From assembly GCA_017650345.1 (NCBI GenBank), contig JAGCFB010000070.1, positions 1 through 57,111 of the forward strand: 57,111 bases of DNA, read 5' to 3'. The notes under the pieces are model-generated. The model saw only the letters and a list, made by a program, of their open reading frames with translations. It did not search any database and was not told the origin of the DNA. Both the position numbers and the translations under genes were made by a program. Of the stretch, positions 25,786 to 42,200 are shown piece after piece. The stretch's first letter is position 1; each line of letters starts with the position of its first letter. Source of the DNA: Kiritimatiellia bacterium. Its GTDB lineage: Bacteria > Verrucomicrobiota > Kiritimatiellia > RFP12 > UBA1067.

Positions 25786-25793
25786 GCCGCAGT

Positions 25794-25825
25794 GCGGGGC
25801 CTCGCGCGAGGGCGCGGGGTCCCGC
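25794..25825 (+). terminator. GC-rich imperfect hairpin after the giant gene (possible operon terminator, no U-tract)
   Basis: GCGGGGCCTCGCGC-gag-GGCGCGGGGTCCCGC pairs at 12 of 14 arm positions. It starts 9 nt after the stop codon. No T-run follows. Confidence 0.3.
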
Positions 25826-25864
25826 CGGCATCCCAACAGGACGTTTAAACAAACAGGAGTCAAA

Positions 25865-26995
25865 ATGAAAAAGGCAGTACGCAAGGTTCTGGTCATCAAT
25901 TCCGGTTCGAGCTCGCTCAAGTACCAGCTCTTCGACATGAAGAGCGGAGAGCGTCTCGCAAAGGGGCTCGTCGAGCGCATCGGGTGCGGCGGACCCAAGG
26001 ACCACACCGAGGCCCTCAAGCAGGTCGTCGCCGACCTCGGCGCGCCGAAGGACATCGACGCTATCGGACACCGCGTCCTCCACGGCGCGGAGGTCTTCAA
26101 GGATTCGGTGAAGGTTGACAAGGCGGTCCTCGCAAAGCTCGACAAGCTGGTCAAGTTCGGTCCGCTCCACATGCCGGCGAACATCGGCGGCATCCGCGCG
26201 TGCGAGAAGATCTTCAAGGGCGTCCCGAACGTCGCGGTCTTCGACACGGCCTTCCACCAGACGATGCCCGACTGCGCGGCGATGTACGCCATCGATCCGA
26301 AGTACTACAAGAAGATGGGCATCCGCAAGTACGGCTTCCACGGAACCTCCCACAAGTTCATCACGGAGGAGGCCGCGAAGCTTCTCAAGAAGCCGGTCGG
26401 CAAGGTGAACCTGGTCACGTGCCACATGGGCAACGGCTCCTCGCTCGCCGCCGTCAAGAACGGCGAGTGCGTCGATACGACGATGGGCCTCACGCCGCTC
26501 GCCGGACTCGTCATGGGCACTCGCTGCGGCGACATCGACGCGGCGGCCGTGCTGGCGATCATGGAGGCGGAGAAGAAGACGCCCGCCGAGATGGACACGC
26601 TGCTCAACAAGAAGTCCGGACTCCTCGCCCTCACGGGCTCCAGCGACTGCCGCGACATCTGCACGAAGGCGGAGCAGGGCGACAAGGCCGCCGAGCTCGC
26701 GCTCGAGATGCTCGCGTACAGGACGGCGCTCTACATCGGCGCGTACAACACGGTCGTCGGCGGCGCGGACGCGATCATCATGACCGGCGGCATCGGCGAG
26801 AACTCGACCGAGGTCCGCGAGAGGATCATAAACCGCCTCGGCGCGCTCGGCATCAAGCTCGACAAGAAGGCGAACAAGGTCCGCGGCAAGGTCGCCGTCC
26901 TGTCCGCCAAGGGATCCAAGATCCCCGTCATCGCGCTTCCGACGAACGAGGAGCTCGCCATCGCGCGCGACACGGTTAAAGTATTGGAGAAATAG
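25865..26995 (+). CDS. ackA: Acetate kinase
   Basis: N-terminal KVLVINSGSSSLKYQLFDM, HRVLHGAE, GFHGTSH and the C-terminal IALPTNEELAIARDT are classic AckA motifs. AGGAG lies at 25855-25859, 6 nt before the ATG. Confidence 0.93.
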   Translation: MKKAVRKVLVINSGSSSLKYQLFDMKSGERLAKGLVERIGCGGPKDHTEALKQVVADLGAPKDIDAIGHRVLHGAEVFKDSVKVDKAVLAKLDKLVKFGPLHMPANIGGIRACEKIFKGVPNVAVFDTAFHQTMPDCAAMYAIDPKYYKKMGIRKYGFHGTSHKFITEEAAKLLKKPVGKVNLVTCHMGNGSSLAAVKNGECVDTTMGLTPLAGLVMGTRCGDIDAAAVLAIMEAEKKTPAEMDTLLNKKSGLLALTGSSDCRDICTKAEQGDKAAELALEMLAYRTALYIGAYNTVVGGADAIIMTGGIGENSTEVRERIINRLGALGIKLDKKANKVRGKVAVLSAKGSKIPVIALPTNEELAIARDTVKVLEK

Positions 26996-27005
26996 AAAAG
27001 GAACC

Positions 27006-27058
27006 GGCGCGAGACGCGAGACGCGAGACGCGACATCCCGTCTCTCGTCTGGCGTCTC
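27006..27058 (+). repeat. GCGAGAC-repeat palindromic element in the ackA-pta spacer
   Basis: GCGAGAC is repeated three times in tandem, followed by the imperfect complement CGTCTCTCGTCTGGCGTCTC, giving a hairpin of roughly 20 bp. Its reverse complement matches 45127-45183 inside uvrA (49/53 aligned positions plus one 4-nt indel by my hand alignment). Confidence 0.85.
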
Positions 27059-27081
27059 CCGTCCAAAGGAGAATCAAGATC

Positions 27082-28119
27082 ATGACAGCAATTGAATCTA
27101 TCATAGCGAAGGCTTCGGCCCTCAACGGCACGGTCGTCCTTCCCGAGGGAATGGACGCGCGCGTCATCACTGCGGCGTGCGCATGCGTCGATCGCAAGAT
27201 CTGCACGCCGGTCGTGCTCGGAACGCCCGAGGAGATCGCCATCGCCGAGGCTTCGGCCGGCCTTAGCCTCGCGGCTCGCGGTATCAAGACCATCGACTAC
27301 ACGCAGGGCGACGCGGAGCTCGAGGCGGCGTACCTCGAGGCGTGGAACGCGAAGGAGTCGAGGAAGCCGACCGAGAAGCAGAAGATCATCGACCTTGCGG
27401 CGGCGGAGAAGACGCTCCGCACGAAGAGGATCTACTTCGGCGGAATGATGGTCAAGCTCGGCAGGGTCAACGGACTCGTCGCGGGCTCCATCGCATCGAC
27501 GGGCGACATGCTCCGCGCGGCGTTCCACACGCTCGGCACGCAGAAGGGCGTGAAGACGGCGAGCTCGTGCTTCATCATGGACCTCAAGACCCCGACTCCG
27601 TCCGGCGACTCGGTCCTCGCCTTCGGCGACTGCGCCGTCATCCCCAACCCGACGGCCGAGCAGCTCGTCGATATCGGACTCGCCACCGCGCAGACGTACC
27701 GCGACCTCACCGGCAACGAGCCGCGCGTCGCGTACCTCAGCTTCTCCACCAAGGGGTCCGCCGCTGGCGACCTCGTCGAGAAGGTCCAGAAGGCCGTCGA
27801 GCTCGCGAAGCCGCGCTTCGCCGAGGCGGGAATCAAGATGGACGGCGAGCTCCAGTTCGACGCGGCCATCGCGCCGTCCGTCGGACAGCTCAAGAACCCG
27901 AACGGCGAGATCCAGGGCAACGCGAACGTCTTCATCTTCCCGGACCTCCAGGCGGGCAACATCGGCTACAAGATCGCGCAGCGAATCGGCGGCGCGACGG
28001 CGATCGGCCCGAACCTCCAGGGTCTCGCCAAGGCGATGAACGACCTTTCGCGCGGATGCTCCGCCGAGGACATCGTCGGAACGATCTGCGTGACGCTTCT
28101 TCAGAGCCAGACCAAGTGA
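27082..28119 (+). CDS. pta: Phosphate acetyltransferase (short PTA_PTB type)
   Basis: The 345-aa product contains GMDARVITAA...TPVVLG, GLVAGSIASTGDMLRAA, VFIFPDLQAGNIGYKIAQR and NDLSRGCS. It lies directly after ackA. AAGGAG lies at about 27066-27071. Confidence 0.88.
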   Translation: MTAIESIIAKASALNGTVVLPEGMDARVITAACACVDRKICTPVVLGTPEEIAIAEASAGLSLAARGIKTIDYTQGDAELEAAYLEAWNAKESRKPTEKQKIIDLAAAEKTLRTKRIYFGGMMVKLGRVNGLVAGSIASTGDMLRAAFHTLGTQKGVKTASSCFIMDLKTPTPSGDSVLAFGDCAVIPNPTAEQLVDIGLATAQTYRDLTGNEPRVAYLSFSTKGSAAGDLVEKVQKAVELAKPRFAEAGIKMDGELQFDAAIAPSVGQLKNPNGEIQGNANVFIFPDLQAGNIGYKIAQRIGGATAIGPNLQGLAKAMNDLSRGCSAEDIVGTICVTLLQSQTK

Positions 28120-28133
28120 GGAGGGGCCTCTCC

Positions 28134-29129
28134 ATGACGCCGGAGGACATGCTGAAGCGCGCGCGCGAAGTCTTCGACATCGAGGTCGAGGGGCTTCGCC
28201 GCACCCGCGACTCGCTCGGCGAGAGCTTCACGAAGGCGATCGAGCTGATGCTCGCGTGCGTGAGGAGCGAGGGCATCATCGTCGTCACGGGCGTCGGGAA
28301 GAACCTCGCCATAGCCGAGAAGATGAGCGCGATCTTCGCATCGACGGGGACGCGCTCCATCGTGCTCAACCCCGTGCAGGCGATGCACGGCGACCTCGGC
28401 ATGGTCGCGCCGCGCGACGTCCTTATCGCGCTCAGCTTCTCCGGCGAGTCGGACGAGATACTCCGCCTCATACCGGCGATCCGCCGCCACGGGCTGAAGG
28501 TCGTCTCGATGACCGGCAAGCCGAACTCCACGCTCGCGCAGATGGGCGACATCCACATAGAGATCCCGTGCGGCAAGGAGGCTTGCCCCTTCGGCATGGC
28601 GCCCACCAACTCCACGACTGCGACGATGGCCATGGGCGACGCGCTCGCGATGGTCATGATCGACGCGATGAAGTTCGACCTCTCCAGCTACGCCATGAAC
28701 CATCCGGCGGGCGCGATCGGGCGCGCGCTGGTCCTGAAGGCCGCGGACATCATGCGCACGGGCGACAGGCTCGCCGTGGTCGCGCCGGAGGCGACGGTCA
28801 TGGAGGCGCTGATGGCGATGACCAAGGCGCAGGGCGGCTCCGCCCTCGTCGCCGACGCCGGCGGCAGGCTCCTCGGCATATTCACGGACGGCGACTTCCG
28901 CCGCATAATGGCGGGCGGCGGCAGGAATGACGGCCAGGCCGTGCTTGGCCAGCCCATCTCCCGCTACATGACGCCCTCGCCTATGTTCGTGAGGAGCGAC
29001 GCGTACGCGGCGGAGCTGCTGAAGGTCTTCGAGCGCAAGCGCATAGACGACCTTCCGGTGTGCGACGCGGAGGGACGCGTCGTGGGCCTTGTCGATATCC
29101 AGGACCTTCCGAAGATGAAAGTTCTCTGA
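28134..29129 (+). CDS. kpsF: KpsF/GutQ-family arabinose-5-phosphate isomerase (SIS domain + two CBS domains)
   Basis: SIS motifs are VVTGVGKNLAIAEKM and ALSFSGESDE. The tandem CBS-like C-terminus reads ...GIFTDGDFRR...GLVDIQDL. GAGGAGG lies at 28118-28124 before ATG 28134. The longer track ORF from 27342 overlaps pta and is rejected. Confidence 0.85.
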   Translation: MTPEDMLKRAREVFDIEVEGLRRTRDSLGESFTKAIELMLACVRSEGIIVVTGVGKNLAIAEKMSAIFASTGTRSIVLNPVQAMHGDLGMVAPRDVLIALSFSGESDEILRLIPAIRRHGLKVVSMTGKPNSTLAQMGDIHIEIPCGKEACPFGMAPTNSTTATMAMGDALAMVMIDAMKFDLSSYAMNHPAGAIGRALVLKAADIMRTGDRLAVVAPEATVMEALMAMTKAQGGSALVADAGGRLLGIFTDGDFRRIMAGGGRNDGQAVLGQPISRYMTPSPMFVRSDAYAAELLKVFERKRIDDLPVCDAEGRVVGLVDIQDLPKMKVL

Positions 29130-29137
29130 AAATAGTG

Positions 29138-29143
29138 TATAAT
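29138..29143 (+). promoter_or_regulatory. -10 element TATAAT upstream of the secretin cluster
   Basis: An AT-rich island (29125-29175) follows kpsF. TATAAT lies at 29138-29143 and the purine-rich AAAGGGGAAAG precedes ATG 29176. Confidence 0.45.
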
Positions 29144-29175
29144 ATACCGTTGTAAAAAAGAAAGGGGAAAGCAGA

Positions 29176-29907
29176 ATGAAGAAGATGATTGCTCTGGCGC
29201 TTGCCGCATGCGCGGCCGCGCAGGTTGTGGCCGCCGTCCCGGCGAGGGGCGGGAAGCGCGCCGCCGCGAACGCCGCGCCCGCCGCCGCCGCCAAGGAGGC
29301 CGAGGACGAGCGCCTTTCCATCGAACAGTTTCCCACCATCGGGCGTCAGGCGACGCTCGCCGCGCCGAACGTGCCCGGCACGTCCAACATCCGCGGCAAG
29401 TGCGCCACGAACCAGCGCCGCTGGATAGTGCTCGAGGCGAAGTACCAGACGATGGCGAAGTGGCACGACCGCCTCACCTTCACGTGGCACGTCCTTCTCG
29501 ACTCCAAGACGGCGACGGAGAACAAGAACAACAAGGACGGGCTTCCCCCGTACTCGTACTTCACGACGAGCACGACGTACGCGAACATCCCGCGCGGACG
29601 CCACGCCGCGTCCGTCTGCCTCCATCCCTCCTACTACGAACGCTTCGGCGAGCCGGCCGCGGTCGGCCTCGTCATCACCAACGACAAGGGCGAGGTGCTC
29701 GCGGGCGACTGCGAGAGCCAGGTCAAGGGGATCGAATCGCATCCGAAGTCCGTCGAAGAGGCGTTCTGGAACAAGTCGGACATCATGGAGGCCAAGGTCG
29801 GCAACACGGACGATCCGATGATCGAGCGCCGCGAGGGGCTTCTCGACCGCTCCAAGACGATCTGGGCCCTCGTGAACCCGGACGATTACGAGCTCGTCGC
29901 TCAGTGA
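29176..29907 (+). CDS. Secreted protein of unknown function, first gene of the secretin cluster (positional equivalent of Amuc_1102)
   Basis: Signal peptide MKKMIALALAACAAAQVVAA. No family is recognised by eye. It is followed after a 10-nt gap by the PilM-like gene. Confidence 0.6.
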   Translation: MKKMIALALAACAAAQVVAAVPARGGKRAAANAAPAAAAKEAEDERLSIEQFPTIGRQATLAAPNVPGTSNIRGKCATNQRRWIVLEAKYQTMAKWHDRLTFTWHVLLDSKTATENKNNKDGLPPYSYFTTSTTYANIPRGRHAASVCLHPSYYERFGEPAAVGLVITNDKGEVLAGDCESQVKGIESHPKSVEEAFWNKSDIMEAKVGNTDDPMIERREGLLDRSKTIWALVNPDDYELVAQ

Positions 29908-29917
29908 GGCTGAAAAG

Positions 29918-31534
29918 ATGTCCAAGAAATTCCTGACGCTAGACATAGGCGCGTCGTCTATCACCCTCGCGGAGTACGAGGCGAGCGGCGCGCAGCTCAC
30001 GCTCCTCAACTACGGAACGGCCGCGCTCGCGGCGCCGATCGACTCTGGCGACGCGGACACGATCCTCTCGCCTGCGATCCTCGAGATCGTGCGCGAGAAG
30101 GGTATCAAGCCCGGCAAGGTCGCGGTCTCGCTCTCGGGGCAGATGGTGTTCCCGCGCTTCGCGGCGATCCCGTTCGTCGGCTCCGACGAGCAGAAGTTCG
30201 ACCAGATGGTCCGCTACGAGATCGAGCAGAACATCCCGTTCCCGATCGACGAGATGGTGTGCGACCGCCAGATCCTCGGCGAGACCGAGAACGGCGACAA
30301 GGCCGTCCTCATTGTCGCGGCGAAGGTTGACCAGGTCGAGGCGATAACGAACGCGCTTGTTGCGACGGGCTTCAGTCCGGAGATCGTGGACGTCGCGTCC
30401 CTCTCCGTGATGAACGCGATCCGCGCCGCGGCGCCGGACGACGGCTCGTGCGTCGTCGCGCTCGACATCGGCGCGAAGACGACGTCGCTCGTCATCTCCG
30501 AGGGCGAGAAGCTCTACAACCGCTCCATCCCGGTGGCGGGCAACACGATCACGAAGGAGATCGCGCAGGCGCTCGGCTGCACGCTGGAGGAGGCGGACCG
30601 CATCAAGCGCGAGGAGGCGTACGTCTCCCTGGGCGGCGTCACCGAGGACGAGGACCCGATGCGCGACAAGGTCGCTAAGGTCTGCCGCGCCGTCATGACG
30701 AGGCTCCACGCCGAGCTTTCCCGCTCCATCAACTTCTACCGCAGCCAGCAGGGCGGCGGCACGCCGGTCAAGCTCTACCTCACCGGCGGCACGGCCCTCC
30801 TGCCGCACATCGGCACGTTCTTCGGCGACTCGCTCCAGATCGACGTCGAGCTCTTCAATCCGTTCGAGACGATCGCCGTCGCGCCGTCCATCGACGCCTC
30901 CGCGCTCGAGACGGGCGCCGCGCTCCTCGCGCCGACGGCCGGCCTCGCGCTGCACTGCGCAGGCGCCGCGCGCTACGGCATCAACCTGCTTCCGCAGTCC
31001 ATCCTCGACGCCCGCGCCGAGGTCAAGCGCATCCCGTTCGTCGCCGCAGCGGGCGTCATGTTCGTCGCGGCGGCGGTGTGCGCGCTGCTCGCCGTCGGAC
31101 ACGGCAAGGACGTCGTTGAGAGCAGGCTCGATGCGGCCGAGGCGAAGGCGCGCGAGTTGCAGGACTGGAAGTCGCGCGTTGACAAGGCGCAGAAGTCCGC
31201 CAAGGAAGCCGAGGCCGACGCCGAGGCGCTGCGCGCGCTAGTCATGAAGCGCGCGGCGGCGGGCTTCCGCCTCAACGCGGTCAGGATGGCCATAGGCGAG
31301 GATCTCTGGATCGAGCGCTGGCAGGGCGACAGCGTCACCTTCCGCGGATGGAAGGACCGCGTCGCAGCGTTCGCCGAGCGCGCCGGCAAGGGCCAGACGG
31401 CCCCCGAGATCGTGGTTTCGCGCCTGAAGTCGAATCCGGCGGTGGACCCCGATTCCGTCAAGGTCGTTGACATGACCGCATTCGGCAAGGACGGATGCCT
31501 CGAACAATTCACAGTGGAGCTGAAGTTCAAATGA
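29918..31534 (+). CDS. pilM: PilM-PilN fusion protein (actin-like ATPase fold + PilN-type TM/coiled-coil tail)
   Basis: LTLDIGASSITLAEY and VALDIGAKTTSLVI are actin-fold phosphate motifs as in PilM/FtsA. GINLLPQS is followed by the TM helix IPFVAAAGVMFVAAAVCALLAV and a coiled coil, which is the canonical PilN N-terminus. The stop overlaps the next start (ATGA at 31531-31534). Confidence 0.75.
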   Translation: MSKKFLTLDIGASSITLAEYEASGAQLTLLNYGTAALAAPIDSGDADTILSPAILEIVREKGIKPGKVAVSLSGQMVFPRFAAIPFVGSDEQKFDQMVRYEIEQNIPFPIDEMVCDRQILGETENGDKAVLIVAAKVDQVEAITNALVATGFSPEIVDVASLSVMNAIRAAAPDDGSCVVALDIGAKTTSLVISEGEKLYNRSIPVAGNTITKEIAQALGCTLEEADRIKREEAYVSLGGVTEDEDPMRDKVAKVCRAVMTRLHAELSRSINFYRSQQGGGTPVKLYLTGGTALLPHIGTFFGDSLQIDVELFNPFETIAVAPSIDASALETGAALLAPTAGLALHCAGAARYGINLLPQSILDARAEVKRIPFVAAAGVMFVAAAVCALLAVGHGKDVVESRLDAAEAKARELQDWKSRVDKAQKSAKEAEADAEALRALVMKRAAAGFRLNAVRMAIGEDLWIERWQGDSVTFRGWKDRVAAFAERAGKGQTAPEIVVSRLKSNPAVDPDSVKVVDMTAFGKDGCLEQFTVELKFK

Positions 31535-32574
31535 ACAAGAACCAGATTACAATGGCGGCAATCGGAGGCGTCGCGCTCGTAGCGGCGCTGGCCGTGGGCT
31601 ACCTCGCGTTCAGCGCCAGCGGCGAGAGCGGCGAGAAGTTCGACGAGCTCGAGGGCAAGCGCGCCGAGATATCCAACCTGAAGGGGGCCGCCGTCGCGCC
31701 GTGCGCGGAGTCCGTCAAGAAGATCGACGAGAACAAGGCGGTCCTGGCGTCCTGGCGCGAGCAGGCGTTCGCGCTTGCGGCGAAGGGCGACGCGGCGCCT
31801 GCGGGCGAGACTTCACCGGCTGCGTTCAAGCAGCGCATGGTCGAGGACGCGCGCGAGCTTTCGAGGCTGCCTGGCGGCGTTGACGGCGCGATCGTCAAGC
31901 CCGGCTTCGGCTTCGGGTTTCCCAGCTTCATCAACGAGGGCGCGATGCCCAAGGCCGAGGAGCTCGCGACGCTCGACCGCCAGTGGTCCGAGACGTGCCT
32001 CCTCGTGAAGACGCTCGCCGGGTGCGGAGTGTCCGAGCTCGTCTCCATCGAGCCGGCGCAGGCGAAGCAGGAGGAGGCCGCGCCGAAGGAGAAGCGCGGC
32101 GGACGCGGACGCAAGGCGCCGGAGAAGCCGAAGGAGATCGCGTCCGCCCAGTCGTACTCCATCAAGATGAACGCGAGGCCCGCGGCCTTCGTCAAGGTCA
32201 TGAACGCCATCGCAGAGGGCGACCGCTTCATATGCATCGACAACTTCTCCTTCACGCGCGAGGACGCGCTCGGACGCATCCTCGGCGAGGGCAAGGGCAA
32301 GGCCGGCGCCGAGGAGGCGGCCGCCCCGAAGGAGTCGCGCCGCGGCAGGGGCCGCCGCGGGGCGCAGCAGGCGGACGAGCAGTCCGAGGAGAAGGCGGAG
32401 GTCGCCATGAAGGGGCTCGTCACCGACCCCTCGACCGCCACACTCGCCATCACGCTTGACGTTACGACATTCGACTTCGGCAGCAGGCCCGTCGCGGCGG
32501 CCGAATCCGCGGAAGGCGAAAAGCCGGAGGCGGCAGCGCAGGCCGCGGGGACAGACGACGATGAGGAGGACTAG
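31531..32574 (+). CDS. PilO-like membrane protein, probable homologue of Akkermansia Amuc_1100
   Basis: N-terminal TM helix MAAIGGVALVAALAVGYLAF, then a coiled coil. The blocks SPAAFKQRMVEDARELS, LVKTLAGCGVSELVSIEP, YSIKMNARPAAFVKVMNAIAEGDRFICIDNFSF and LAITLDVTTFDF line up with the Amuc_1100 sequence as I recall it (TPTAFQNELKTFRDSL, LVNKLAECGLSKFIKV, LEIAFQGDRESVLKAMNAITGMQDYLFTVNSI, VFVQVSLNLVHFN). The track start at 31495 is rejected in favour of the ATGA-coupled ATG at 31531. Confidence 0.6.
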   Translation: MNKNQITMAAIGGVALVAALAVGYLAFSASGESGEKFDELEGKRAEISNLKGAAVAPCAESVKKIDENKAVLASWREQAFALAAKGDAAPAGETSPAAFKQRMVEDARELSRLPGGVDGAIVKPGFGFGFPSFINEGAMPKAEELATLDRQWSETCLLVKTLAGCGVSELVSIEPAQAKQEEAAPKEKRGGRGRKAPEKPKEIASAQSYSIKMNARPAAFVKVMNAIAEGDRFICIDNFSFTREDALGRILGEGKGKAGAEEAAAPKESRRGRGRRGAQQADEQSEEKAEVAMKGLVTDPSTATLAITLDVTTFDFGSRPVAAAESAEGEKPEAAAQAAGTDDDEED

Positions 32575-32577
32575 GCA

Positions 32578-33693
32578 ATGATCGGCAAGGAAAGCAAGGG
32601 CTTCTTCGCGGCGCACTGGGACTGGCTTATCGCCGGCCTCGGCGCCCTCGCGCTCGCGGGAGGGGCCGTGTGGATGGTGGTCGAGTCCGGCGCGGACCCC
32701 GACGAGGCGGCGCGCGACGAGGCGGCGTCTCTCGGCTCGTCCGGCGGAAGCGGGGCGAAGAAGATCGACGACGTCGAGATCCTCCCCTACGCGGCGGCCC
32801 TCAAGCTGCTCGAAAGCCCGACCAAGGTCGTGGAGCCAGCCGAGAAGCAGGGGAGCTTCCTCGCGTCCGCGAGGCGCGTGTTCTGCGAGCAGGGCGACGC
32901 GTCGGCGGAGAAGCCGGCGTGCGGACAGCCGATCCCGTTCGGACTCAAGACCTGCCCGCTCTGCGGCGCGAAGCAGCCCGAGGAGGCCAAGGTCTCGCTC
33001 GACTCCGACGGCGACGGCATCCCGGACGAGGTCGAGGTCGCTCTCGGAATGAACCCGAACGACCCGACGGACATCGACGGCGACCTCGACGGCGACGGCT
33101 TCACGAACGCCGAGGAGTTCGCCGCGAAGACGGATCCCAAGGATCCCGCCTCGCATCCCGACTACCTCGATTCGCTCCGCGTCGATCCGAACCTCAAGGC
33201 CGAGCGCCTCGCGTTCTACTTCGAGGCCGTCATGCAGACGCCGGGCGGCGCGAAGTTCTCCTTCAGGGATCCGAAGGCGCGCAACGACAACGGAGGCGTC
33301 GGCAGGACCTACCGCGTGCTCGCCGGCGAGGAGATCGGAACGTCCGGTTTCGTCGTGAAGAGCTACGAGCAGAAGTCCCAGCGCGAGTCGATCAAGGGCA
33401 CCAGCGTCAAGCGCGAGCGCGACACCTCGACCGTGGAGCTCGAGCGCAAGTCCGACGGCAAGCGCGTGACGCTCACGATAGGCGAAAAGCGCTTTGCGGA
33501 CGTGGACATACAGGTCCGGCTCGTCTATGAGCGCGGGGCCGGCAAGGAGTTCACGGTCGTCAAGGGCGACACGATCGAACTCAACGGCGAGAGCTATCTC
33601 GTCAAGTCGATAGCGCGCGACGGAAAGAGCGTGAAGGTCACGTTCGAGAATGCCAAGACGGGAACAAAAACCGTCGAAGCACTTGAACAGTGA
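32578..33693 (+). CDS. Membrane-anchored protein with a Cys4 zinc-ribbon-like motif and TSP3-like Ca-binding repeats (positional equivalent of PilP/Amuc_1099)
   Basis: TM helix WDWLIAGLGALALAGGAVWMVV. Cys pattern CEQGDASAEKPAC...CPLC. Ca-binding repeats DSDGDGIPDEVE and DIDGDLDGDGFTNAEE. The C-terminal domain is beta-rich. Confidence 0.6.
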   Translation: MIGKESKGFFAAHWDWLIAGLGALALAGGAVWMVVESGADPDEAARDEAASLGSSGGSGAKKIDDVEILPYAAALKLLESPTKVVEPAEKQGSFLASARRVFCEQGDASAEKPACGQPIPFGLKTCPLCGAKQPEEAKVSLDSDGDGIPDEVEVALGMNPNDPTDIDGDLDGDGFTNAEEFAAKTDPKDPASHPDYLDSLRVDPNLKAERLAFYFEAVMQTPGGAKFSFRDPKARNDNGGVGRTYRVLAGEEIGTSGFVVKSYEQKSQRESIKGTSVKRERDTSTVELERKSDGKRVTLTIGEKRFADVDIQVRLVYERGAGKEFTVVKGDTIELNGESYLVKSIARDGKSVKVTFENAKTGTKTVEALEQ

Positions 33694-33705
33694 AGAGAAA
33701 TTAGA

Positions 33706-33711
33706 TATAAT
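33706..33711 (+). promoter_or_regulatory. Internal promoter for the secretin gene (TTGAAC-17 nt-TATAAT)
   Basis: TTGAAC lies at 33683-33688, followed by a 17-nt spacer and TATAAT at 33706-33711. AAGGAG lies at 33729-33734 and the ATG at 33745. Confidence 0.55.
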
Positions 33712-33744
33712 TATTTTCAGTAAATCCTAAGGAGCAGCGTTCCA

Positions 33745-36700
33745 ATGATGAACTTCAGGAAACTGGTTGCGGCAAGCGCGGCGATGGCACTGGTGGCCGT
33801 CGGCCACAACGTTATCGCCCAAGACGATCTCGACGACCTTCTTGCGGCACTTGAATCGGACTCGTCAGGCGGCGCGTCCGCAGAGGCGGCCACCCCCGCA
33901 GAGCCGGCCGAGACTCCCGAAGTCGCGGCACGGGACGAGGAGCCTGCACCTGCGGCGGAAGCGGAGGAGCCGGCCGCGGCCGAAGCCGACGAGCCGGAGC
34001 CGTCCGAAGAGCCAGCCGACGAGCCGGAGGAGGAGCCTGCAGCCGAGGAGCCTGCGGCGGAAGCCGAGGAGGAGCCTGCGGCCGAGGAGCCAGCCGACGA
34101 GCCGGAGGAGCCCGCTCCCGCTGAAGAGGGACCTGCCGTCGCCGCCGTGCCGGCCGCTCCCGCAGCGGCGGAAGCGGAACCCGAGGCGGGGTCCGAGGCT
34201 GAGGAGCCTGCCGTCGAGGTTGCCGCCGAGCTTTCCGGAGACGACGCCGAGCTGCTCGCGAACGTCGCCGCCGCACAGCGTCTCGGCCGCCAGGCCTACG
34301 ACCTCCAGGCCAAGCGCGAGATCCAGATTGCGCGCAGCTGCATGCGCTCCGAGGAATATCTTGAGGCCGCCAAGCACTACCGCCTCGCGCAGAAGTACCT
34401 GAACGACAGCCCCGCGACCGCCACGCTGCGCAGGGAGTGCGGGCAGGGCATCGCCGAGGGACTGTACCGCGCCGCCCTGCAGGAGGACGGCATCGGCCGC
34501 CGCGACCGCGCGATCAAGCTCATGAAGAAGGCCATGGAGTTCCGCCACCCCAAGGCCCGCCGCCAGCTTGAGCAGTGGAAGGACGGAGTCGATCCCAGCT
34601 CGCTCCAGGCCGACGTCTCCGAGGTCCGCGGACGCATCTCCGAGCCCGAGTACGCCGCCAAGCGCGCCGAGATCCTCAAGCACCTGCGCAGGTCGCGCCA
34701 GCTTCTCGGAACGAAGGAGCTCGACGCCGCCCTCGACGAGTGCGAGATCGTCCTCGTCCTCGATCCGACCAACCAGGAGGCGATCCGCCTCCGCGGCAAG
34801 ATCGAGCGCAAGATGTACACGATCGGCGAGCAGGAGCGCGAGGCCGCCCGCGAAGGCATGATCGCCGACGTCAACAGGGCCTGGCGCCCGGCGTACGCGG
34901 TCAACGCCCGCGACAGCGTGAAGAAGACCGGCGGCACGGTCAAGACGGAGACGGCCGACGACACCGAGCGCACCCAGGAGCAGAACGTCATCGCCCGCAT
35001 GAAGGCGATGAAGCTCCCGCAGGTCACCTTCAAGCCGCCGGCGACGATCTCCGACGCGGTTGACTTCTTCCAGACCGCCTCCATCGACTACGACGACCCG
35101 AGGCTCCCCCGCGAGGAGCGCGGCTTCGGCTTCATCATCCGCAACAACGACAATGCGCCCGTTCCCATGTCCGCCGCGTCCTCCGAGGTCGAGGAGGGAT
35201 TCGGCGTCGGCGGCGACGAGGACATGCCGATGCCCACGGGCCCCGGCGTCTTCACGACGATGCTCTCGCTCCCCAACCCGACGTTCTACGAGGCCCTCAC
35301 CGAGGTCTGCTCGCAGGTCGGCTACAAGTTCAAGGTCAAGGGCCGCAACATCTACATCATGCCCAAGAACATGACGGCGGAGGAGATGACGACCCGCAGC
35401 TACCCGGTCCTCTCCACGTTCATGGAGCGCATGAACACCGCTTCGGCCGAGCTTAAGGAAGCCAATCCCGGAAGCGGATTCGGCGGCGGCGGACGCCGCA
35501 ACGACGACAACACGGGAGAGGGGAACGAGGAGGAGGACCTCAAGGACTACTTCCGCATGATGGGCCTCGAGTTCCCCACCGGATCCAGGATCATGTACCT
35601 GCCATCCCTCGGCAAGCTGCGCGTCAGGAACACGTACGAGAACCTCGCCGAGTTCGAGAAGGCCCTCGTCGAGCTCAACGCCGACCCCAGACTCATCGAG
35701 ATCGAGGCCCGCTTCGTCGAAGTCTGCCAGGAGGACCTGAACTCCCTCGGCTTCGAGTGGATCCTCAACAGCGACTACACGCTCAACCTTCCTAAGCACC
35801 TCGCGCGCGCCCTCAACGTGAAGAACGGCGCATGGGGCAAGAGCGACAGCACCGTGACGTACACGGACGGCACGAGCTACTCGACCGTCGGCGGCGGCAT
35901 CTCCACGGCAGGCGGCACGACCGTCAAGAACACAGCGTCCGAGATGACCTCCTCCAGCTCCAGGACATTCTACGCGAACTCCAACGGAGCCAGCTGGATC
36001 AAGGACAAGGGCAGCCAGGTCAACAGCCACCGCAACGCCGGCATCAACGGCTTCGGCGGCGATTCCGAGTACGGCACCGGCCAGCGCTACCTCTCCACGC
36101 TCTCCAACCACATCTCCGGCGAGAGCAAGTCCACCAACGACCAGTTCATGCGCGTGAACGCCTTCCTCGGCGGCGCGGACCTCTCGATGATCCTGCACAT
36201 GCTCTCGCAGCGCAGCGACACGGACCTCCTCTCCGCCCCGAAGGTGCTGACCAAGACCGGCCAGCCCGCCACGATGAAGGTCGTCACCGAGTTCATCTAC
36301 CCGGAGTCCTACAACGTCCAGCTGCAGTCCTCCAGCTCCTCCAGCTCGAGCTACGGCGGCAGCCAGAGCGCGATTCTCGCGGTCGTCGAGCCCGAGTCCT
36401 TCAAGATGAGGGAAGTCGGCGTCATCCTCGAGACGACGCCCACGCTCACGGACGACGGCAACATCATCGACATCGTCATCGACGCCCGCGTGGTTGACGA
36501 GCCGACGTGGAAGAACTACGGCATGAAGATTCCGTTCACCGGCAACTCTTCGTCCCTCCAGAACTTCCAGGGCATCGGTGACATTCTCGGCGGCCTGTCG
36601 GACGTCCTCGCCACGATCGGCACCGGACTTACCGACGCCGTGAAGCAGACGTTCGCGGAATCCACCGTCAACGCCGCGACGAGCGCCCTCGACAGCCTCA

Positions 36701-37053
36701 CGACGAAGTCCAACGAGACGATGACGTACTACGACGCCCCGATGGAGCAGCCGTTCTTCCACGTCCGCCAGATCCAGTCCAACCTCTCGCTCGCGCCCGG
36801 TGCGACGATCGTGATGGGCGGACTCATCACCGAGGCCCGCAAGGCCATGGACGACAAGATTCCGTTCCTCGGCGACCTGCCGTTCATCGGAAGGCTCTTC
36901 CGCAGCCACTCCGAGCAGACGAAGAAGCGCAACCTGCTCATCTTCCTCACCGCCCGTCTCGTCACGATCAGCGGCAAGGAGGTCGTGGTTGACTCCACGG
37001 GCGAGCTGAAGGCCGAGAATCCGGTCATACCTTCGCCGTCCGTCGGCGATTGA
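33745..37053 (+). CDS. Outer-membrane secretin (type II/III secretion system / PilQ family) with a long acidic N-terminal repeat region
   Basis: Signal peptide MMNFRKLVAASAAMALVAVGHNVIA. The C-terminal secretin signature reads ...VVMGGLITEARKAMDDKIPFLGDLPFIGRLFRSHSEQTKKRNLLIFLTARLV. An E/P/A-rich region lies at about 33886-34215. Confidence 0.85.
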   Translation: MMNFRKLVAASAAMALVAVGHNVIAQDDLDDLLAALESDSSGGASAEAATPAEPAETPEVAARDEEPAPAAEAEEPAAAEADEPEPSEEPADEPEEEPAAEEPAAEAEEEPAAEEPADEPEEPAPAEEGPAVAAVPAAPAAAEAEPEAGSEAEEPAVEVAAELSGDDAELLANVAAAQRLGRQAYDLQAKREIQIARSCMRSEEYLEAAKHYRLAQKYLNDSPATATLRRECGQGIAEGLYRAALQEDGIGRRDRAIKLMKKAMEFRHPKARRQLEQWKDGVDPSSLQADVSEVRGRISEPEYAAKRAEILKHLRRSRQLLGTKELDAALDECEIVLVLDPTNQEAIRLRGKIERKMYTIGEQEREAAREGMIADVNRAWRPAYAVNARDSVKKTGGTVKTETADDTERTQEQNVIARMKAMKLPQVTFKPPATISDAVDFFQTASIDYDDPRLPREERGFGFIIRNNDNAPVPMSAASSEVEEGFGVGGDEDMPMPTGPGVFTTMLSLPNPTFYEALTEVCSQVGYKFKVKGRNIYIMPKNMTAEEMTTRSYPVLSTFMERMNTASAELKEANPGSGFGGGGRRNDDNTGEGNEEEDLKDYFRMMGLEFPTGSRIMYLPSLGKLRVRNTYENLAEFEKALVELNADPRLIEIEARFVEVCQEDLNSLGFEWILNSDYTLNLPKHLARALNVKNGAWGKSDSTVTYTDGTSYSTVGGGISTAGGTTVKNTASEMTSSSSRTFYANSNGASWIKDKGSQVNSHRNAGINGFGGDSEYGTGQRYLSTLSNHISGESKSTNDQFMRVNAFLGGADLSMILHMLSQRSDTDLLSAPKVLTKTGQPATMKVVTEFIYPESYNVQLQSSSSSSSSYGGSQSAILAVVEPESFKMREVGVILETTPTLTDDGNIIDIVIDARVVDEPTWKNYGMKIPFTGNSSSLQNFQGIGDILGGLSDVLATIGTGLTDAVKQTFAESTVNAATSALDSLTTKSNETMTYYDAPMEQPFFHVRQIQSNLSLAPGATIVMGGLITEARKAMDDKIPFLGDLPFIGRLFRSHSEQTKKRNLLIFLTARLVTISGKEVVVDSTGELKAENPVIPSPSVGD
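33886..34215 (+). repeat. Degenerate tandem repeats encoding an acidic (E-E-P-A)n low-complexity region of the secretin
   Basis: Recurrent GAGCCAGCCGACGAGCCGGAGGAGGAGCC units (for example near 34008 and 34087) encode EEPADEPEEEPAAEEPAAEAEEEPAAEEPADEPEEP. Confidence 0.7.
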
Positions 37054-37061
37054 GGCGACAG

Positions 37062-37631
37062 ATGAAAATCTGCCTGACGGGAGGGATTGCCTGCGGCAAA
37101 TCCCTCCTTTCAAGTTTTCTGAACGGACTCGGCGTCGAAACACTCGACGCCGACGACGTCGTCCATGAGCTGGTCCCCGAGGACGAGCGCAGGCGCCTCG
37201 CGAAGGTCGTCTTCCGCGACCCCGCCGCGCGCAAGGCGCTCGAAGCGCGGCTCCATCCGCTCGTCCGCAAGCGCTTCGCCGATTGGCTCGAACGGCGGGA
37301 TTCCAAGGGAGCGGACGCCGCGCCATCCGCCGGGCCGGAAGTTCCTCCGCTGCGCGTTGCCGTGATTCCTCTCCTCTTTGAGGTGCATTGGGAGCGGGAT
37401 TATGATATAATACTATGCATCACATCATCGCGCGAGAGGCAGATCGAGCGCATGGTGGAGACAAGGGGCTACACCCTTGAAGAGGCGGAGGCCAGGCTCG
37501 CGGCGCAGATGGATGTGTCGGAGAAGGCCGCCAGGTCACATTACGTTATCCGTAACGACGGATCAAGCGAGCAACTCAAGGAAGGCGCCACGCGACTTGT
37601 CGCGTGGCTAAAGGAACAGGTGACGAGATGA
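37062..37631 (+). CDS. coaE: Dephospho-CoA kinase
   Basis: [14 protein letters not shown] (P-loop) and [10 protein letters not shown]. The product is 189 aa, typical for CoaE. The TTG start at 37050 in the track is less likely than ATG 37062. Confidence 0.85.
37403..37411 (+). promoter_or_regulatory. Extended -10 (TGATATAAT) embedded in coaE, candidate rho promoter
   Basis: This is the only AT-rich island inside coaE (37398-37425). It is read as the rare codons TAT GAT ATA ATA CTA ... TCA and lies about 215 nt upstream of the rho ATG. Confidence 0.4.
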
Positions 37632-39202
37632 GCGAAACACTCGACGTATTTGCGCAGAGCATCAAGGACGCGCCTCAGCGTCCGCAGGGCGCGCCCGCAC
37701 AGGGCCAGGGCGGCGGACAGCAGTCGCCGCAGCAGGGCGCGCCGAAGCCGCAGAAGAAGCAGTTCCACGGCGGACGCAAGCCGTTCAATCGCGGCGGGAA
37801 GCAGAACGCGTCCCCGATCCGCGGCGCGAACGGTACGGAGTCCGTCAACCCGCTCCTCAACGCCCCGCTTCCCACCGAGCAGGCGGGCGGACACGACGAG
37901 GCTCCCGCCAACCCGAACCGCGACGCGTCCCTTCCCGAGTACCGGCTTGCGGACATCCAGACCTGGCCTGCGCCGCAGATCGTGGAGCGCATGATGCCCG
38001 GTGCGGACCCGGAGGAGCTGGGCTCCTACCGCAAGCACGAGCTGATTTTCGCGGCGATCCGCGCGTACCTCGCGAAGGGCGGCGCCGTGCTGGCGTCCGG
38101 CTGCCTCGAGATCATGCGCGAGGGCCACGGCTTCCTCCGCTCCGCCAAGAACAACTTCCTTGCGTTCCCCGAGGACGTTTTCGTCACGCAGCAGCAGATC
38201 CGCCGCCACGCGCTCCGCACGGGCGACATCATCGAGGGCCCCATCCGCGATCCGCGCGACCGCGACCGCTTCTTCTGCCTCGGCAACGTCAACACGGTCA
38301 ACGGCAAGGAGCCGTCCGTCGCCGCCCGCGTCGTCCACTTCGAGAACCTCACGGCGACCTTCCCGACGCGTCGCATCGTCCTTGAGACTTCCGCTACGGA
38401 ATACTCGACGCGCGTCATCGACATGTTCACGCCGATCGGGTTCGGACAGCGCGGACTCATCATCGCGCCGCCTCGCGTCGGCAAGACGGTCCTTCTCCAG
38501 AAGATGGCCAACGCCATCACGACGAACCACCCGGACGCGATGCTCATCATCCTGCTCATCGACGAGCGTCCCGAGGAGGTGACGGACATGCAGCGCAACA
38601 CGAAGGCGATGGTCCTCTCCTCGACGTTCGACGAGGAGCCGCAGCACCACGTCAACGTCGCCGAGATGGTGATCGAGATGTCCAAGCGCCAGGTCGAGAA
38701 CGGACGCGACGTCGTCATCCTCCTCGACTCGATAACGCGCATGGCCCGCGCGTACAACACCGTCCAGCCGCATTCCGGCAAGATCCTCACCGGCGGCGTC
38801 GATGCGCTCGCCATGCACCGTCCGAAGCGCTTCTTCGGCGCGGCGCGCAACATCGAGGGCGGCGGCTCGCTCACGATCATCGCGACAGGCCTCGTCGATA
38901 CAGGCTCGCGCATGGACGAGGTGATCTTCGAGGAGTTCAAGGGCACCGGCAACATGGAGATCGTCCTCGACCGCGGACTCGCCGACAAGCGCATCTTCCC
39001 GGCGATCGACATCGAGAAGTCCGGCACGCGCAAGGAGGACCTCCTCCTCGAGCCGCTCGAGCTGGAGAAGACGTGGGGACTCAGGCGCATCCTCGCGCCG
39101 GCCGGACCCGAGTCCGCCATGAAATCCGTCCTCACCTCCCTCAAGAAGACCAAGTCGAACCCCGAGTTCCTTCTCGCGCTCGATCTGGAAAAGCTGGGGT
39201 GA
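37628..39202 (+). CDS. rho: Transcription termination factor Rho with a ~105-aa Q/G/P-rich N-terminal extension
   Basis: [21 protein letters not shown] (Walker A), [16 protein letters not shown], and [36 protein letters not shown]. The start is ATGA-coupled to the coaE stop (37628-37631). An alternative upstream start lies at 37604. Confidence 0.92.
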
Positions 39203-39206
39203 CGCC

Positions 39207-42200
39207 ATGAATACAGGTTCCCGCATTCGCCTTCTCGCAGCATCCGCGCTTCTGTCGCTGGCAATGCCGGTGGCGAACGCGGCGACCATAGTTTACGCCA
39301 ACTGGGGCGCCTTCACCAACAACGCGACGTACGCTGCGGCCACGGTGTCGCCCCAGACTGCCACGCTCACCACAGACGACACCGTCTTCACGGCGACGCC
39401 GCCGACGGGCATGGGGATCGACGCATGGTACGTGGTCTCCCACGCGCCGTCGGCGCCGGACATCGCGGAAGGAACCAACTCGATGGCGGCGTCGTCATTC
39501 TCGACGACGTTCGCCCCGTCCTACACCCTGACGCTCAACACCAAGATGCTGGTCGTCTCCAGCGGCGGAAACTACTGGCTCATTCCGGCGTACTCCTGGT
39601 ACGGCTACACCCTCGCGTACAACGCGAACGGCGCGTCGGGCTCGGCGCCCGCGTCCGCGTCCCACAAGTACCCCGACGCGTTCACCCTTGCGTCCGCGAG
39701 CGGACTCACCCTCGCGGGCCACAGCTTCGGCGGATGGTACAGGAACGCCGCCTGCACGGGGACCCGCTACACCGCCGGGCAGTCCGTCTCCGGCTCGACG
39801 TTCTCCGCGACGGAGAACGGAACCGTGACGCTCTACGCGAAGTGGACCGCGATATCCTCGACCGTGACGCTCGACGCGCAAAGCGGAAGCGGCGGAACGT
39901 CGTCCGTCACCGCGACGTACGGATCGGCGATGCCGTCCATAACCAAGCCGACGCGCACTGGCTACACGTTCGGCGGATACTGGACGGAGGCGAACGGCAA
40001 GGGGACGCAGTACTACTACGCTTCGGGCGCGAGCGCGCGGACCTGGGACAAGACCTCCGCCACGACGCTCTACGCGAAGTGGACCGCAAAAACCTCTACC
40101 GTGACGCTCGACGCGCAAGGCGGAAGCGGCGGAACCTCGTCCGTCACCGCCACTTACGATTCCGCGCTCCCGACTGTGGTCAAGCCGACGCGCACGGGCT
40201 ACACGTTCGGCGGCTACTGGACGGAGCCCGGCGCCAAGGGAACGAAGTACTACTACTCGACAGGCAAGAGCGCGCGGACCTGGGACAAGACGTCCGCAAC
40301 GACGCTCTATGCCCAGTGGACTGCGAAGACTTACGAATTTACCGTCGATCCGAACGGCGGCGTTTACAACAGCTCGTCCGATCCGACGGTCAAGGATCCT
40401 GATTTGATGTACGGAACCTCGCGGTGGTGGTCGGTCTCCCCGGCCACGCGCACGGGCTATTCCTTCACCGGATGGTACTCCTCGGCGAGCGGCGGATCGC
40501 AGGTGTGGGACGCGAGCGGCAAAGCCGTGAAGGGGACGTACTGGAGCGACACGCACGACAACGGCGGACTCTGGCAGTACGACGCGGCGGACGGCACATT
40601 CACGACGTACGCGCACTGGACTGCGAAGCAGTACACAGTCACGTTCGACCTTCAGGGCGGAAGCGGCGGATCGTCGTCGGTGACGGCAACCTACGATTCG
40701 GCGCTGCCGTCGATCGGCAGGCCGACGCGCACGGGCTACACGTTCGGCGGATACTACACCGAGCCGGACGGCGGCGGCGTGCAGTACTACAACTCCAGCG
40801 GCAACGGCGCGCGCACCTGGGACGTCGCCTCGGCGACCACGCTCTACGCCAAATGGAATCCCAAGGTGTACACGTTCTACGTCGATCCCAACGGCGGAAC
40901 CTACTCCGGCTCGACCGAGCCCACCCAGAAGTCGCCGAACCTGATGTACGGAAGCTCACGGTGGTGGTCGGTCTCCCCCGCAACGCGCACGGGCTACTCG
41001 TTCACCGGATGGTACTCCTCGTCGAGCGGCGGGTCGCAGGTGTGGGACGCGAGCGGAAACGCCGTGAAGGGCGGCTACTGGAGCGACACGCACGACAACG
41101 GCGGAGTCTGGATTCACGACGCCTCCAGCGGCTCGTTCACGACTTACGCGCAGTGGACGCCGGCGACGTACGGCCTGATGTTCGACGCGCAGGGAGGAAG
41201 CGGCGGAACCTCGTCCGTCACGGCCACCTACGGATCGAACCTCCCGTCCGTCACCGTGCCGACGCGCACGGGCCATACGTTCGCTGGCTACTGGTCCGCG
41301 CCGGACGGCGGCGGCACGCAGTACTACAACGCGTACGGAAACGGCGTCAAGAAGTGGGACGTCGCGTCCGCCGCGACGCTGTACGCGAAGTGGACGCAGA
41401 ACACCTACACCGTTACGTTCAGGTACAAGAAGGGCAACGGCGCGAACGCGTCCAGCCAGGTCGAGACGCCCGGAACCGAGGCGGCGGTCGCGCCGGACGA
41501 ATCGGAGGTCAACACGTACCTCGCCCACTGGTTCGTCGAATGGGATGCGGACTTCTCGTGCGTCGTGAGCAACATGACGGTGAACGCGATCTACACGCAG
41601 AGCTACTTCAGGATCGGCTACGCGCCTGGCGTCGGCGCGAGCGGCGAGATGGAGGAGCAGACGATCCACGGCGGAGTCCCGACGGCGCTGACGGCGAACG
41701 CGTTCGTCCGCAGCGGCTACTCGTTCACGGAGTGGCTGTCGCAGATCGACGGGACGCCGCGCACGTTCGCGGACGAGGAGGTCGTCCAGGACCTCGTCGG
41801 CGGAACGAACGTCCTTCTCACCTTCACCGCACAGTGGTCTCCGATATCGTACACAGTCGCGTACGAGCCGGAGGGCGGCGACGGACTCATGCCGCCGACG
41901 GCGCACCAGTACGACGTCCCGTTCCAGGTCGCGGCGAACGCCTACGACCGCACGGGCTACACGTTCGCGTCGTGGACGAACGCGGCGGGCCAGGTTTACC
42001 TCGGCGGCGAGACAGTCTCCAACCTGACGGCGACGGCCGGGGGCGTAGTTTCGTTCTGGGCGGTGTGGACCGCGAACGAATACAGCGTGCACTACGACCC
42101 CAACGGCGCGCAGATCGACGCGATGCACAACATGGGCGACACGTCGGCGACGTACGACGTCCCGTTCGACCTGCCTGAGAACCTGTTCGTCCGCAACGGC

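Follow-up and report, generated by a model that had tools for sequence, protein, structure and literature searches.

A five-gene secretin cluster in a Kiritimatiellia contig as the very probable orthologue of the Akkermansia Amuc_1102–1098 (MUL2) locus

Contig JAGCFB010000070.1 of a Kiritimatiellia bacterium carries five genes, at positions 29176–37053 of the forward strand, that almost certainly represent, as judged by sequence comparison, the Kiritimatiellae orthologue of the Akkermansia cluster Amuc_1102–1098, which is also named MUL2. The stretch of DNA that was analysed, referred to here as the window, is the entire contig of 57,111 bp. All five genes and their order were matched to the Akkermansia cluster by a combination of profile, structure and NCBIfam/Pfam matches, with significant similarity for each of the five proteins; the locus is a divergent member of a named, known system and no new machine. 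Pfam and NCBIfam already carry models for parts of the cluster. A preliminary description of this DNA had reported a five-gene cluster here and had likened its gene order to that of Amuc_1102–1098; open reading frames (ORFs) are found exactly at these positions, the described order holds and the proposed identity is borne out. The combined reading, in which the locus is a MUL2 orthologue and also encodes a pilus-type scaffold for glycan acquisition, is considered reasonably probable.

The five plus-strand ORFs are closely packed, with gaps between neighbours of −4 to 51 nucleotides (nt) in the ORF listing. Genes 1 and 2 are separated by a 10-nt gap, genes 2 and 3 overlap by 4 nt, genes 3 and 4 are separated by 3 nt, and a 51-nt AT-rich spacer lies between gene 4 and the secretin gene. 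This co-orientation and tight spacing indicate an operon-like arrangement. In the nomenclature of the Akkermansia cluster, Amuc_1102 corresponds to MUL2A, Amuc_1101 to MUL2B and Amuc_1100 to the 'PAS' protein.

The five proteins and their Akkermansia counterparts

The first gene (29176–29907, + strand) encodes a protein of 243 amino acids (aa) that belongs to the Amuc_1102 (MUL2A-like) family of secreted beta-sandwich proteins. A predicted Sec-type signal peptide, which agrees with the earlier description of this protein as secreted, is followed by a disordered Ala/Lys-rich linker and the beta-sandwich. The Pfam family PF28178 ('Amuc_1102') is annotated on homologues that share 58–61% identity with protein 1, and a profile of 69 diverse family members matches the crystal structure of Amuc_1102 (7DSZ) over the whole domain (E 6e-18). 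The AlphaFold model of protein 1 (AF2) has a pLDDT of ~90 in its core, and a Foldseek search with this model returned 7DSZ as the sole match below 1e-3 (E 1.8e-7, TM-score 0.60, ~18% identity). Protein 1 had no match in the copies of Pfam and NCBIfam that were scanned, the Pfam copy being one without PF28178. A single-sequence phmmer search of protein 1 against the PDB was empty, as was a search with a profile from close homologues; the structures of Amuc_1102 (7DSZ) and Amuc_1100 were reached solely by profiles built from diverse family members. The family is small (237 clusters at 50% identity in a set of 1.84 billion representatives), and conservation is highest in the C-terminal motif GLLDRSKTIWALVNPDDYE (G-L-L-D-R-S-K-T-x-x-A-L-x-N-x-D-D-Y-E). 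An LAAC motif raised the possibility that protein 1 is a lipoprotein, which was rejected because the Cys is not conserved among homologues.

Gene 2 (29918–31534, + strand) encodes a protein of 538 aa in which a PilM part and a PilN part occupy a single ORF. The cytoplasmic PilM part (29918–30979, + strand) has an actin-like ATPase fold and matches PilM_2 (PF11104) at E 4.7e-42; the protein also scores 173 bits against the pilM model TIGR01175, passing the cut-off of 133. Matches of this part in the PDB include Myxococcus xanthus PilM (3JC8, E 2.5e-33), as well as 2YCH and 5EOU. The PilN part (30980–31534, + strand) contains the INLLP motif that is the signature of PilN (aa 355–359), a transmembrane (TM) helix (aa 375–393), a coiled coil and a periplasmic C-terminal domain. 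The INL-P pattern is invariant across 30 homologues, and a profile of the C-terminal part matches M. xanthus PilN (3JC8_Na) from INLLP onward at E 5e-7. The Pfam model for PilN found no match in any family member examined. Because the PilM match is combined with INLLP, the TM helix and the PilN profile match, protein 2 is, by its sequence, a true PilM–PilN fusion, as had been proposed. The model Amuc_1101_fam (NF045709) matches protein 2 at E 4.2e-114 with 382.6 bits, which is under its equivalog cut-off of 650 and makes protein 2 a clear homologue but, by NCBI's threshold, no equivalog; the match covers model positions 4–468 of 608 and leaves the C-terminal 70 aa unaligned.

Gene 3 (31531–32574, + strand), the start of which overlaps the stop of gene 2 by 4 nt, encodes the Amuc_1100-family protein in the PilO position (347 aa). 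An alternative ATG upstream, at 31495, would yield a product of 359 aa, and gene callers use 31531. The protein is bitopic, with an N-terminal TM anchor and a Glu/Lys/Ala-rich insert. Amuc_1100_fam (NF038287) matches it at E 5.7e-18 with 65 bits, under the cut-off of 180, and PF28028 (Amuc_1100) is annotated on an identical 347-aa protein. The structures 6KNY, 6LAD and 6LAF are matched by the profile of the protein 3 family at E 7e-9, and a single-sequence phmmer search of protein 3 against the PDB was empty.

The Amuc_1099-family protein is encoded by gene 4 (32578–33693, + strand; 371 aa) and is 100% identical to NCBI protein J6U17_04695. It passes the curated cut-off of Amuc_1099_fam (NF042425; E 4e-24, 85.8 bits against a cut-off of 50). 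Protein 4 is bitopic, being anchored by a TM helix with no lipobox, and contains a four-Cys zinc-ribbon-like motif and a beta-rich C-terminal half. The four invariant cysteines are C103, C115, C126 and C129, with a weak match to Zn_ribbon_3, and two TSP3_bac repeats of the calcium-binding type were found at E 3.4e-13. Its first description as a zinc-ribbon/TSP3 membrane protein was thus accurate. The AlphaFold model of this multi-domain protein (pTM 0.42) had no significant Foldseek match, the best being at E 0.02, such that a match at the level of single domains could be missed, and the profile search returned only EF-hand-like noise on the TSP3 repeats.

The fifth gene (33745–37053, + strand; 1102 aa) encodes an Amuc_1098-family secretin, the secretin assignment having been made in the preliminary description as well (Secretin PF00263, E 2.4e-31). 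Amuc_1098_fam (NF042912) matches aa 158–1080 of protein 5 over model positions 9–803 of 805 (E 6.6e-113, 378 bits), under the cut-off of 750. The protein consists of a signal peptide, an acidic Ala/Glu/Pro-rich spacer of ~145 aa, a helical TPR-like region, periplasmic domains and the secretin core, which holds a Ser/Gly/Thr-rich insert. PilQ and GspD structures in the PDB match only the C-terminal core.

The locus shares with MUL2 five homologous proteins in the same order and the same downstream flank, namely secretin, dephospho-CoA kinase and rho. It differs in that the host belongs to the class Kiritimatiellae, comes from the ruminant gut and has a G+C content of 65% (~65% across the whole window). 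The secretin described here contains the extra acidic Ala/Glu/Pro-rich segment of ~145 aa and the Ser/Gly/Thr-rich insert, the Amuc_1101 model leaves the last 70 aa of protein 2 uncovered, and protein 1 has a structure-based sequence identity of ~18% to Amuc_1102. The proteins of the cluster also recur in ruminant gastrointestinal metagenomes.

Conservation of the block across PVC lineages

The synteny of MUL2 has been described by Wilkie et al. as extending throughout the Akkermansiaceae, often to other Verrucomicrobiales, less to the Chthoniobacterales, and not to the Methylacidiphilales (PMC13174399). In the Akkermansiaceae, the neighbours of MUL2 include a secretion channel protein, dephospho-CoA kinase and rho (PMC13174399, Fig. 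2 legend). A literature search of limited reach found no publication that ties the cluster to the Kiritimatiellae.

A motif scan covered one genome per species of the GTDB, and its results extend the comparison within the Planctomycetes–Verrucomicrobia–Chlamydiae (PVC) group. The scan motif was taken from one alignment (A5), as two others (A3 and A4) were too diverse for a genome scan. It returned 58 further loci (L004–L061), which are a sample and no census, as neither close Kiritimatiellae nor the C-terminal variants found in Akkermansia fit the scan motif. The source labels of these loci (Kiritimatiellia, Lentisphaeraceae, Lentisphaerales, Victivallales, Verrucomicrobia and 'PVC group') are automatic and should be treated cautiously.

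When searched by tblastn with the proteins of the window, all 58 loci proved to be collinear and on a single strand. Gene 2 is present in each of them (58/58), with an Amuc_1102-family gene directly upstream in every case (58/58). Where sufficient DNA was available, gene 4 was found in 43/43 loci, the secretin in 33/33, and coaE after the secretin in 25/28, usually with rho next. Thirteen loci had no tblastn match for gene 3, and all of these have an Amuc_1100-like ORF when searched with a hidden Markov model (E 1e-60 to 1e-90). The median identities to the window proteins over the 58 loci are 34% (protein 1), 38% (protein 2), 25% (protein 3), 33% (protein 4) and 38% (protein 5). Upstream neighbours are not conserved among the 58 loci. 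What is new here, at the level of sequence, is that the five-gene block, including its coaE–rho flank, extends to lineages labelled Kiritimatiellia and Lentisphaerae.

The breadth of this distribution, which takes in rumen Kiritimatiellae and many environmental PVC lineages, argues for a general envelope function that predates specialisation on gut mucin. Because the block and its coaE–rho flank are so widespread, an ancestral PVC envelope function would account for the locus better than a mucin-specific adaptation. Furthermore, five genes that are labelled 'hypothetical' in metagenome-assembled genomes of Kiritimatiellae gain names.

Two observations concern individual loci in this sample. 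Three of them (L004, L040 and L047) are titled 'uncultured Akkermansia sp.', and their Amuc_1102-family proteins are far nearer to the Kiritimatiellia/Lentisphaerae-type query than to 7DSZ, with the C-terminal motif LxNxDDYE as compared to FWYDRYP in 7DSZ; these names are probably unreliable. The second observation concerns the junction of genes 3 and 4, which in the window (32572–32580) share a reading frame and are separated as TAG-NNN-ATG, that is, a stop, one codon and a start. The same in-frame succession of stop, codon and start lies between the Amuc_1100-like and Amuc_1099-like genes in 24/56 loci, mostly as TAA-CCN-GTG. This arrangement would most simply reflect tight translational coupling. 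An apparent fusion of the two genes in seven loci was rejected, as an in-frame stop separates them.

A proposed pilus-type scaffold and the alternatives to it

The Akkermansia cluster was described by Ottman et al. as an abundant envelope cluster (Amuc_1098–1102) that possibly forms pili-like structures, and high abundance of the secretin was reported (PMC5332112). The preliminary description held that the function of the machine was still unresolved, which does not stand: the locus is already named MUL2 and is reported to be important for mucin acquisition in A. muciniphila (bioRxiv 10.64898/2025.12.30.696933; PMC13174399). The latter also reports that MUL genes are needed for the accumulation of mucin inside Akkermansia and that marine relatives take up fucoidan (PMC13174399). 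According to the preprint, the Akkermansia pilin genes that are needed for colonisation sit elsewhere in the genome, and Amuc_1100 is described as structurally resembling PilO/PilN (bioRxiv 10.64898/2025.12.30.696933).

The locus is proposed to encode a scaffold that spans the envelope and resembles that of type IVa pili. In this scaffold, cytoplasmic PilM is fused, through one TM helix, to an inner-membrane PilN with a periplasmic domain, and the Amuc_1100-type protein, anchored in the inner membrane, would take the PilO position. The Amuc_1099-type protein, membrane-anchored and equipped with a calcium-binding region, would take the PilP/GspC position, and the secretin, with its long periplasmic extension, would form the outer-membrane component; the secreted beta-sandwich protein of the Amuc_1102 type is a part specific to this family. 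Pilin-like subunits, a platform protein and an assembly ATPase, presumably encoded at other sites in the genome, would cooperate with the scaffold. The fibre or pseudofibre thus built would be threaded through the secretin and mediate attachment to complex glycans and their acquisition, in line with the role reported for MUL2 in Akkermansia. An output of this type would fit the polysaccharide-degrading lifestyle of these bacteria. The chances that glycan acquisition here depends on a pilus are evenly balanced; the primary role of the locus is most plausibly the attachment to and uptake of complex glycans.

Comparison with the PilMNOPQ proteins of Pseudomonas aeruginosa, M. xanthus and Thermus thermophilus reveals several shared features. 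These include the PilM fold, the INLLP motif and TM helix of PilN, a secretin, a bitopic protein in the PilO position, and an operon that is located apart from pilins and ATPases. In contrast to those systems, PilM and PilN are fused here and an extra Amuc_1102-type gene is present upstream. No similarity to PilO sequences can be detected in the protein at the PilO position, and the PilP position is occupied by a TM-anchored zinc-ribbon/TSP3 protein without PilP similarity, whereas PilP is a lipoprotein. In addition, the Pfam scan of the secretin returned no AMIN domain. The label 'PilO-like', given to protein 3 from the outset, is based on its position, on its bitopic topology and on the structural resemblance to PilO/PilN that has been published for Amuc_1100 (bioRxiv 10.64898/2025.12.30.696933); a link at the sequence level was not found. 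The equivalence of protein 4 to PilP/GspC would likewise follow from its position.

A number of results weigh against the scaffold as outlined above. The Pfam PilO model matched 0/28 members of the protein 3 family, and an hhalign comparison of this family with the PilN-like part gave a probability of only 6.5%. Neither Foldseek nor profile searches found PilP/GspC similarity in protein 4. Three of the four NCBIfam matches (Amuc_1101, 1100 and 1098) are under their equivalog cut-offs, so functional equivalence with the Akkermansia cluster is not guaranteed. Within the 57-kb window, no prepilin-type N-terminus was found in six frames, no T2SSE/GspE/PilB-type Walker A or PilD-like motif was found in any frame, and Pfam scans of the other large ORFs returned no family of pili or of the type II secretion system (T2SS). 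Finally, protein 1 lacks both a class III signal peptide and a prepilin motif, and the 50 best Foldseek matches of its model include neither an archaeal nor a bacterial pilin.

The features of protein 1 also bear on how the Amuc_1102 type is understood. In the literature it carries the label 'archaeal type IV pilin-like', and the possibility that it is a type IV pilin was rejected on account of its Sec signal, its charged disordered linker and the lack of a pilin match. In terms of mechanism, the Amuc_1102-type protein is no type IV pilin; most likely it is an accessory subunit that belongs to the complex and is located in the periplasm or at the surface. A protein of this type without pilin features has a bearing on the way in which its localisation and mechanism are read in the Akkermansia literature.

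The preliminary description had stated that no pilin, prepilin peptidase, ATPase or platform gene is located in the window, which is confirmed by the empty six-frame motif and Pfam scans. Furthermore, no set of pilus or T2SS genes adjoins the cluster in the 29 kb that precede it or in the 20 kb that follow it. Operons of pilMNOPQ without pilins or ATPases are normal in organisms with type IVa pili (e.g., P. aeruginosa PA5040–5044 as opposed to pilABCD and pilTU), and because pilMNOPQ normally stands apart, the missing pilins and ATPases in the window are not anomalous. Among the further loci, L028 (Kiritimatiellia), L049, L056 and L060 have prepilin-type ORFs at a distance of a few kb from the cluster, and L045 has a GspE/PilB-type ATPase near it; prepilin-type ORFs or a secretion ATPase were found near the cluster in these five loci only, with ~0.93 Mb examined. 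Pilin-type substrates do exist in carriers of the locus.

The same proteins could be assigned to a type II secretion-like exporter, in which protein 2 would play the part of GspL, the Amuc_1100-type protein that of GspM, the Amuc_1099-type protein that of GspC and the secretin that of GspD. Glycan-degrading enzymes or surface proteins would then be pushed out by a pseudopilus whose genes lie elsewhere, and the mucin-growth defect in Akkermansia would reflect missing exoenzymes. PilM-like and PilN-like parts in a single chain do reproduce the architecture of GspL (actin-like domain, TM helix, periplasmic domain), and weak matches to the T2SSL family of Pfam occur in 2/30 homologues of protein 2 (E 9e-4). 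Bitopic partners and a secretin are present, as in the T2SS; protein 4 is bitopic like GspC, in contrast to the lipoprotein PilP. The secretin also scores slightly higher with the GspD model (TIGR02517, 117.8 bits) than with PilQ (104.3 bits), both scores being under their cut-offs and the former far under the GspD cut-off of 351. However, the sequence affinity of protein 2 is to PilM/PilN and not to GspL, as PilM is a far better match than any GspL: the cut-off of TIGR01175 is passed, 3JC8 is matched at E 2.5e-33 with no GspL among the PDB matches, and INLLP is a signature of PilN. The gspE–K genes are absent from the window and are not consistently found near the 58 further loci. An exporter of this kind is therefore regarded as unlikely.

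A second alternative dispenses with the fibre altogether. The locus might encode a PVC-specific conduit for glycan import, in which the secretin would be a gated entry port in the outer membrane for the 'selfish' uptake of large glycans into the periplasm, the scaffold of PilMN and the 1100- and 1099-type proteins would hold and gate the secretin, and the Amuc_1102-type protein would act as a periplasmic plug or a glycan-binding adaptor. The constant position of the Amuc_1102 family directly upstream of the PilM–N gene, and its lack of pilin character, would be consistent with such a role, as would the observation that no ATPase or pilin is consistently linked to the examined loci, such genes being near only five. 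The accumulation of mucin inside Akkermansia through MUL genes and the fucoidan uptake of marine relatives (PMC13174399) point in the same direction, as do the reported high abundance of the secretin (PMC5332112) and the precedent of periplasmic proteins that plug a pilus secretin in P. aeruginosa (PMC13392014). On the other hand, PilM normally couples to an ATPase and a platform protein. Secretins are not known to act as importers in the absence of a pilus, and DNA uptake through PilQ needs one, which also counts against this explanation. No similarity of protein 1 to plug proteins was seen, no search having been aimed at it, and the conduit is a reading that we infer. It is viewed as doubtful. 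The same low probability is assigned to its evolutionary extension, namely that the block, which is welded to coaE–rho in Kiritimatiellia, in lineages labelled Lentisphaerae and in Akkermansia, could be an ancestral PVC envelope machine that builds no pilus and lets large glycans enter through the secretin independently of an ATPase. It is similarly improbable that, in such a machine, the non-pilin protein of the Amuc_1102 type would act as gate or adaptor and that the Amuc_1100-type protein would be an analogue of PilO in the inner membrane and no signalling pilus protein of the surface.

Returning to the pilus-type scaffold, the placement of protein 3 is of wider relevance. Amuc_1100 is among the most studied 'probiotic effector' proteins and is usually called an outer-membrane, pilus-associated and host-signalling molecule of a mucin specialist. 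The PilO position and the inner-membrane anchor of the Amuc_1100-type protein challenge this usual description and likewise affect how localisation and mechanism are read in the Akkermansia literature.

Neighbouring genes and candidate expression signals

A Pfam scan of the large ORFs identified ackA, pta and a kpsF-like SIS/CBS gene upstream of the cluster and, in order, coaE, rho, a gene for a 1365-aa Flg_new-repeat protein and uvrA downstream. The coaE gene (dephospho-CoA kinase; 37050–37631, + strand; CoaE E 5e-34) abuts the stop of the secretin gene, and rho (transcription terminator; 37604–39202, + strand; Rho_RNA_bind and ATP-synt_ab) overlaps the end of coaE. The abutting or overlapping of coaE and rho with their preceding genes suggests that this housekeeping pair may be co-transcribed with the envelope cluster. 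In Pseudomonas, coaE adjoins pilBCD as well, such that a linkage between coaE and pilus genes may be ancient.

The order kpsF–[five genes]–coaE–rho is common to three related Kiritimatiellae metagenome contigs, and in two of the three, the upstream side also holds ackA, pta and the gene for a giant LamG protein, and uvrA comes straight after rho. The preliminary description had raised the possibility that giant surface proteins near the cluster (4058, 1845 and 1365 aa) are its cargo, which would make the locus a dedicated machine for their export or anchoring. This idea draws on their proximity in the contig, on the TSP3 repeats common to the 4058-aa protein and protein 4, and on a related contig (L002) in which a 4005-aa LamG homologue lies upstream of ackA at the same relative position as the 4058-aa protein. 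It is opposed by the three housekeeping genes (ackA, pta and the kpsF-like gene) that intervene between the upstream giant and the cluster, and by the lack of the Flg_new gene between rho and uvrA in L002 and in another related contig (L003). As uvrA directly follows rho in these two contigs, the Flg_new gene is best explained as a local, lineage-specific insertion. In addition, none of these neighbours adjoins the cluster at the 58 more distant loci; coaE and rho alone are conserved there. The cargo proposal is thus largely refuted by synteny and is considered very improbable.

Two candidate promoters of the sigma-70-like type were found, both of which are consensus matches alone and no proof of promoters. 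The first (ATGAAA-17-TATAAT; 29115–29143, + strand) lies in an AT-rich spacer 5' of gene 1 and has 10/12 consensus matches, and the second (TTGAAC-17-TATAAT; 33683–33711, + strand) lies just 5' of the secretin gene. Sigma-70-like matches are strongly enriched in the region 25500–39600 (7 compared to 0.8 expected) and are located in a few AT-rich intergenic islands; the spacers 5' of gene 1 and of the secretin gene are the only AT-rich ones of the cluster. Terminator-like hairpins are not enriched in the same region (9 versus 9.6 expected).

Several further features of the window were recorded. The 4058-aa ORF with LamG and TSP3 domains (13609–25785, + strand) is mirrored by a 4369-aa antisense ORF (13183–26292, − strand), which is probably an artefact of the high G+C content. 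The 1365-aa protein between rho and uvrA (39207–43304) contains nine Listeria-Bacteroides (Flg_new) repeats. Five large ORFs of 385–897 aa (579–2060, 2097–3548, 10548–13241, 52777–54981 on the − strand, and 55122–56279) matched no Pfam family at E ≤ 1e-3. A Bat/aerotolerance-like set is located at 49808–52631 and comprises a DUF58 gene (49808–50701), an unannotated 296-aa ORF (50698–51588) and a protein with BatA-N and VWA domains. The ORF of the latter starts at 50973, and its BatA domain begins at about residue 205, such that the true start is probably near 51585.

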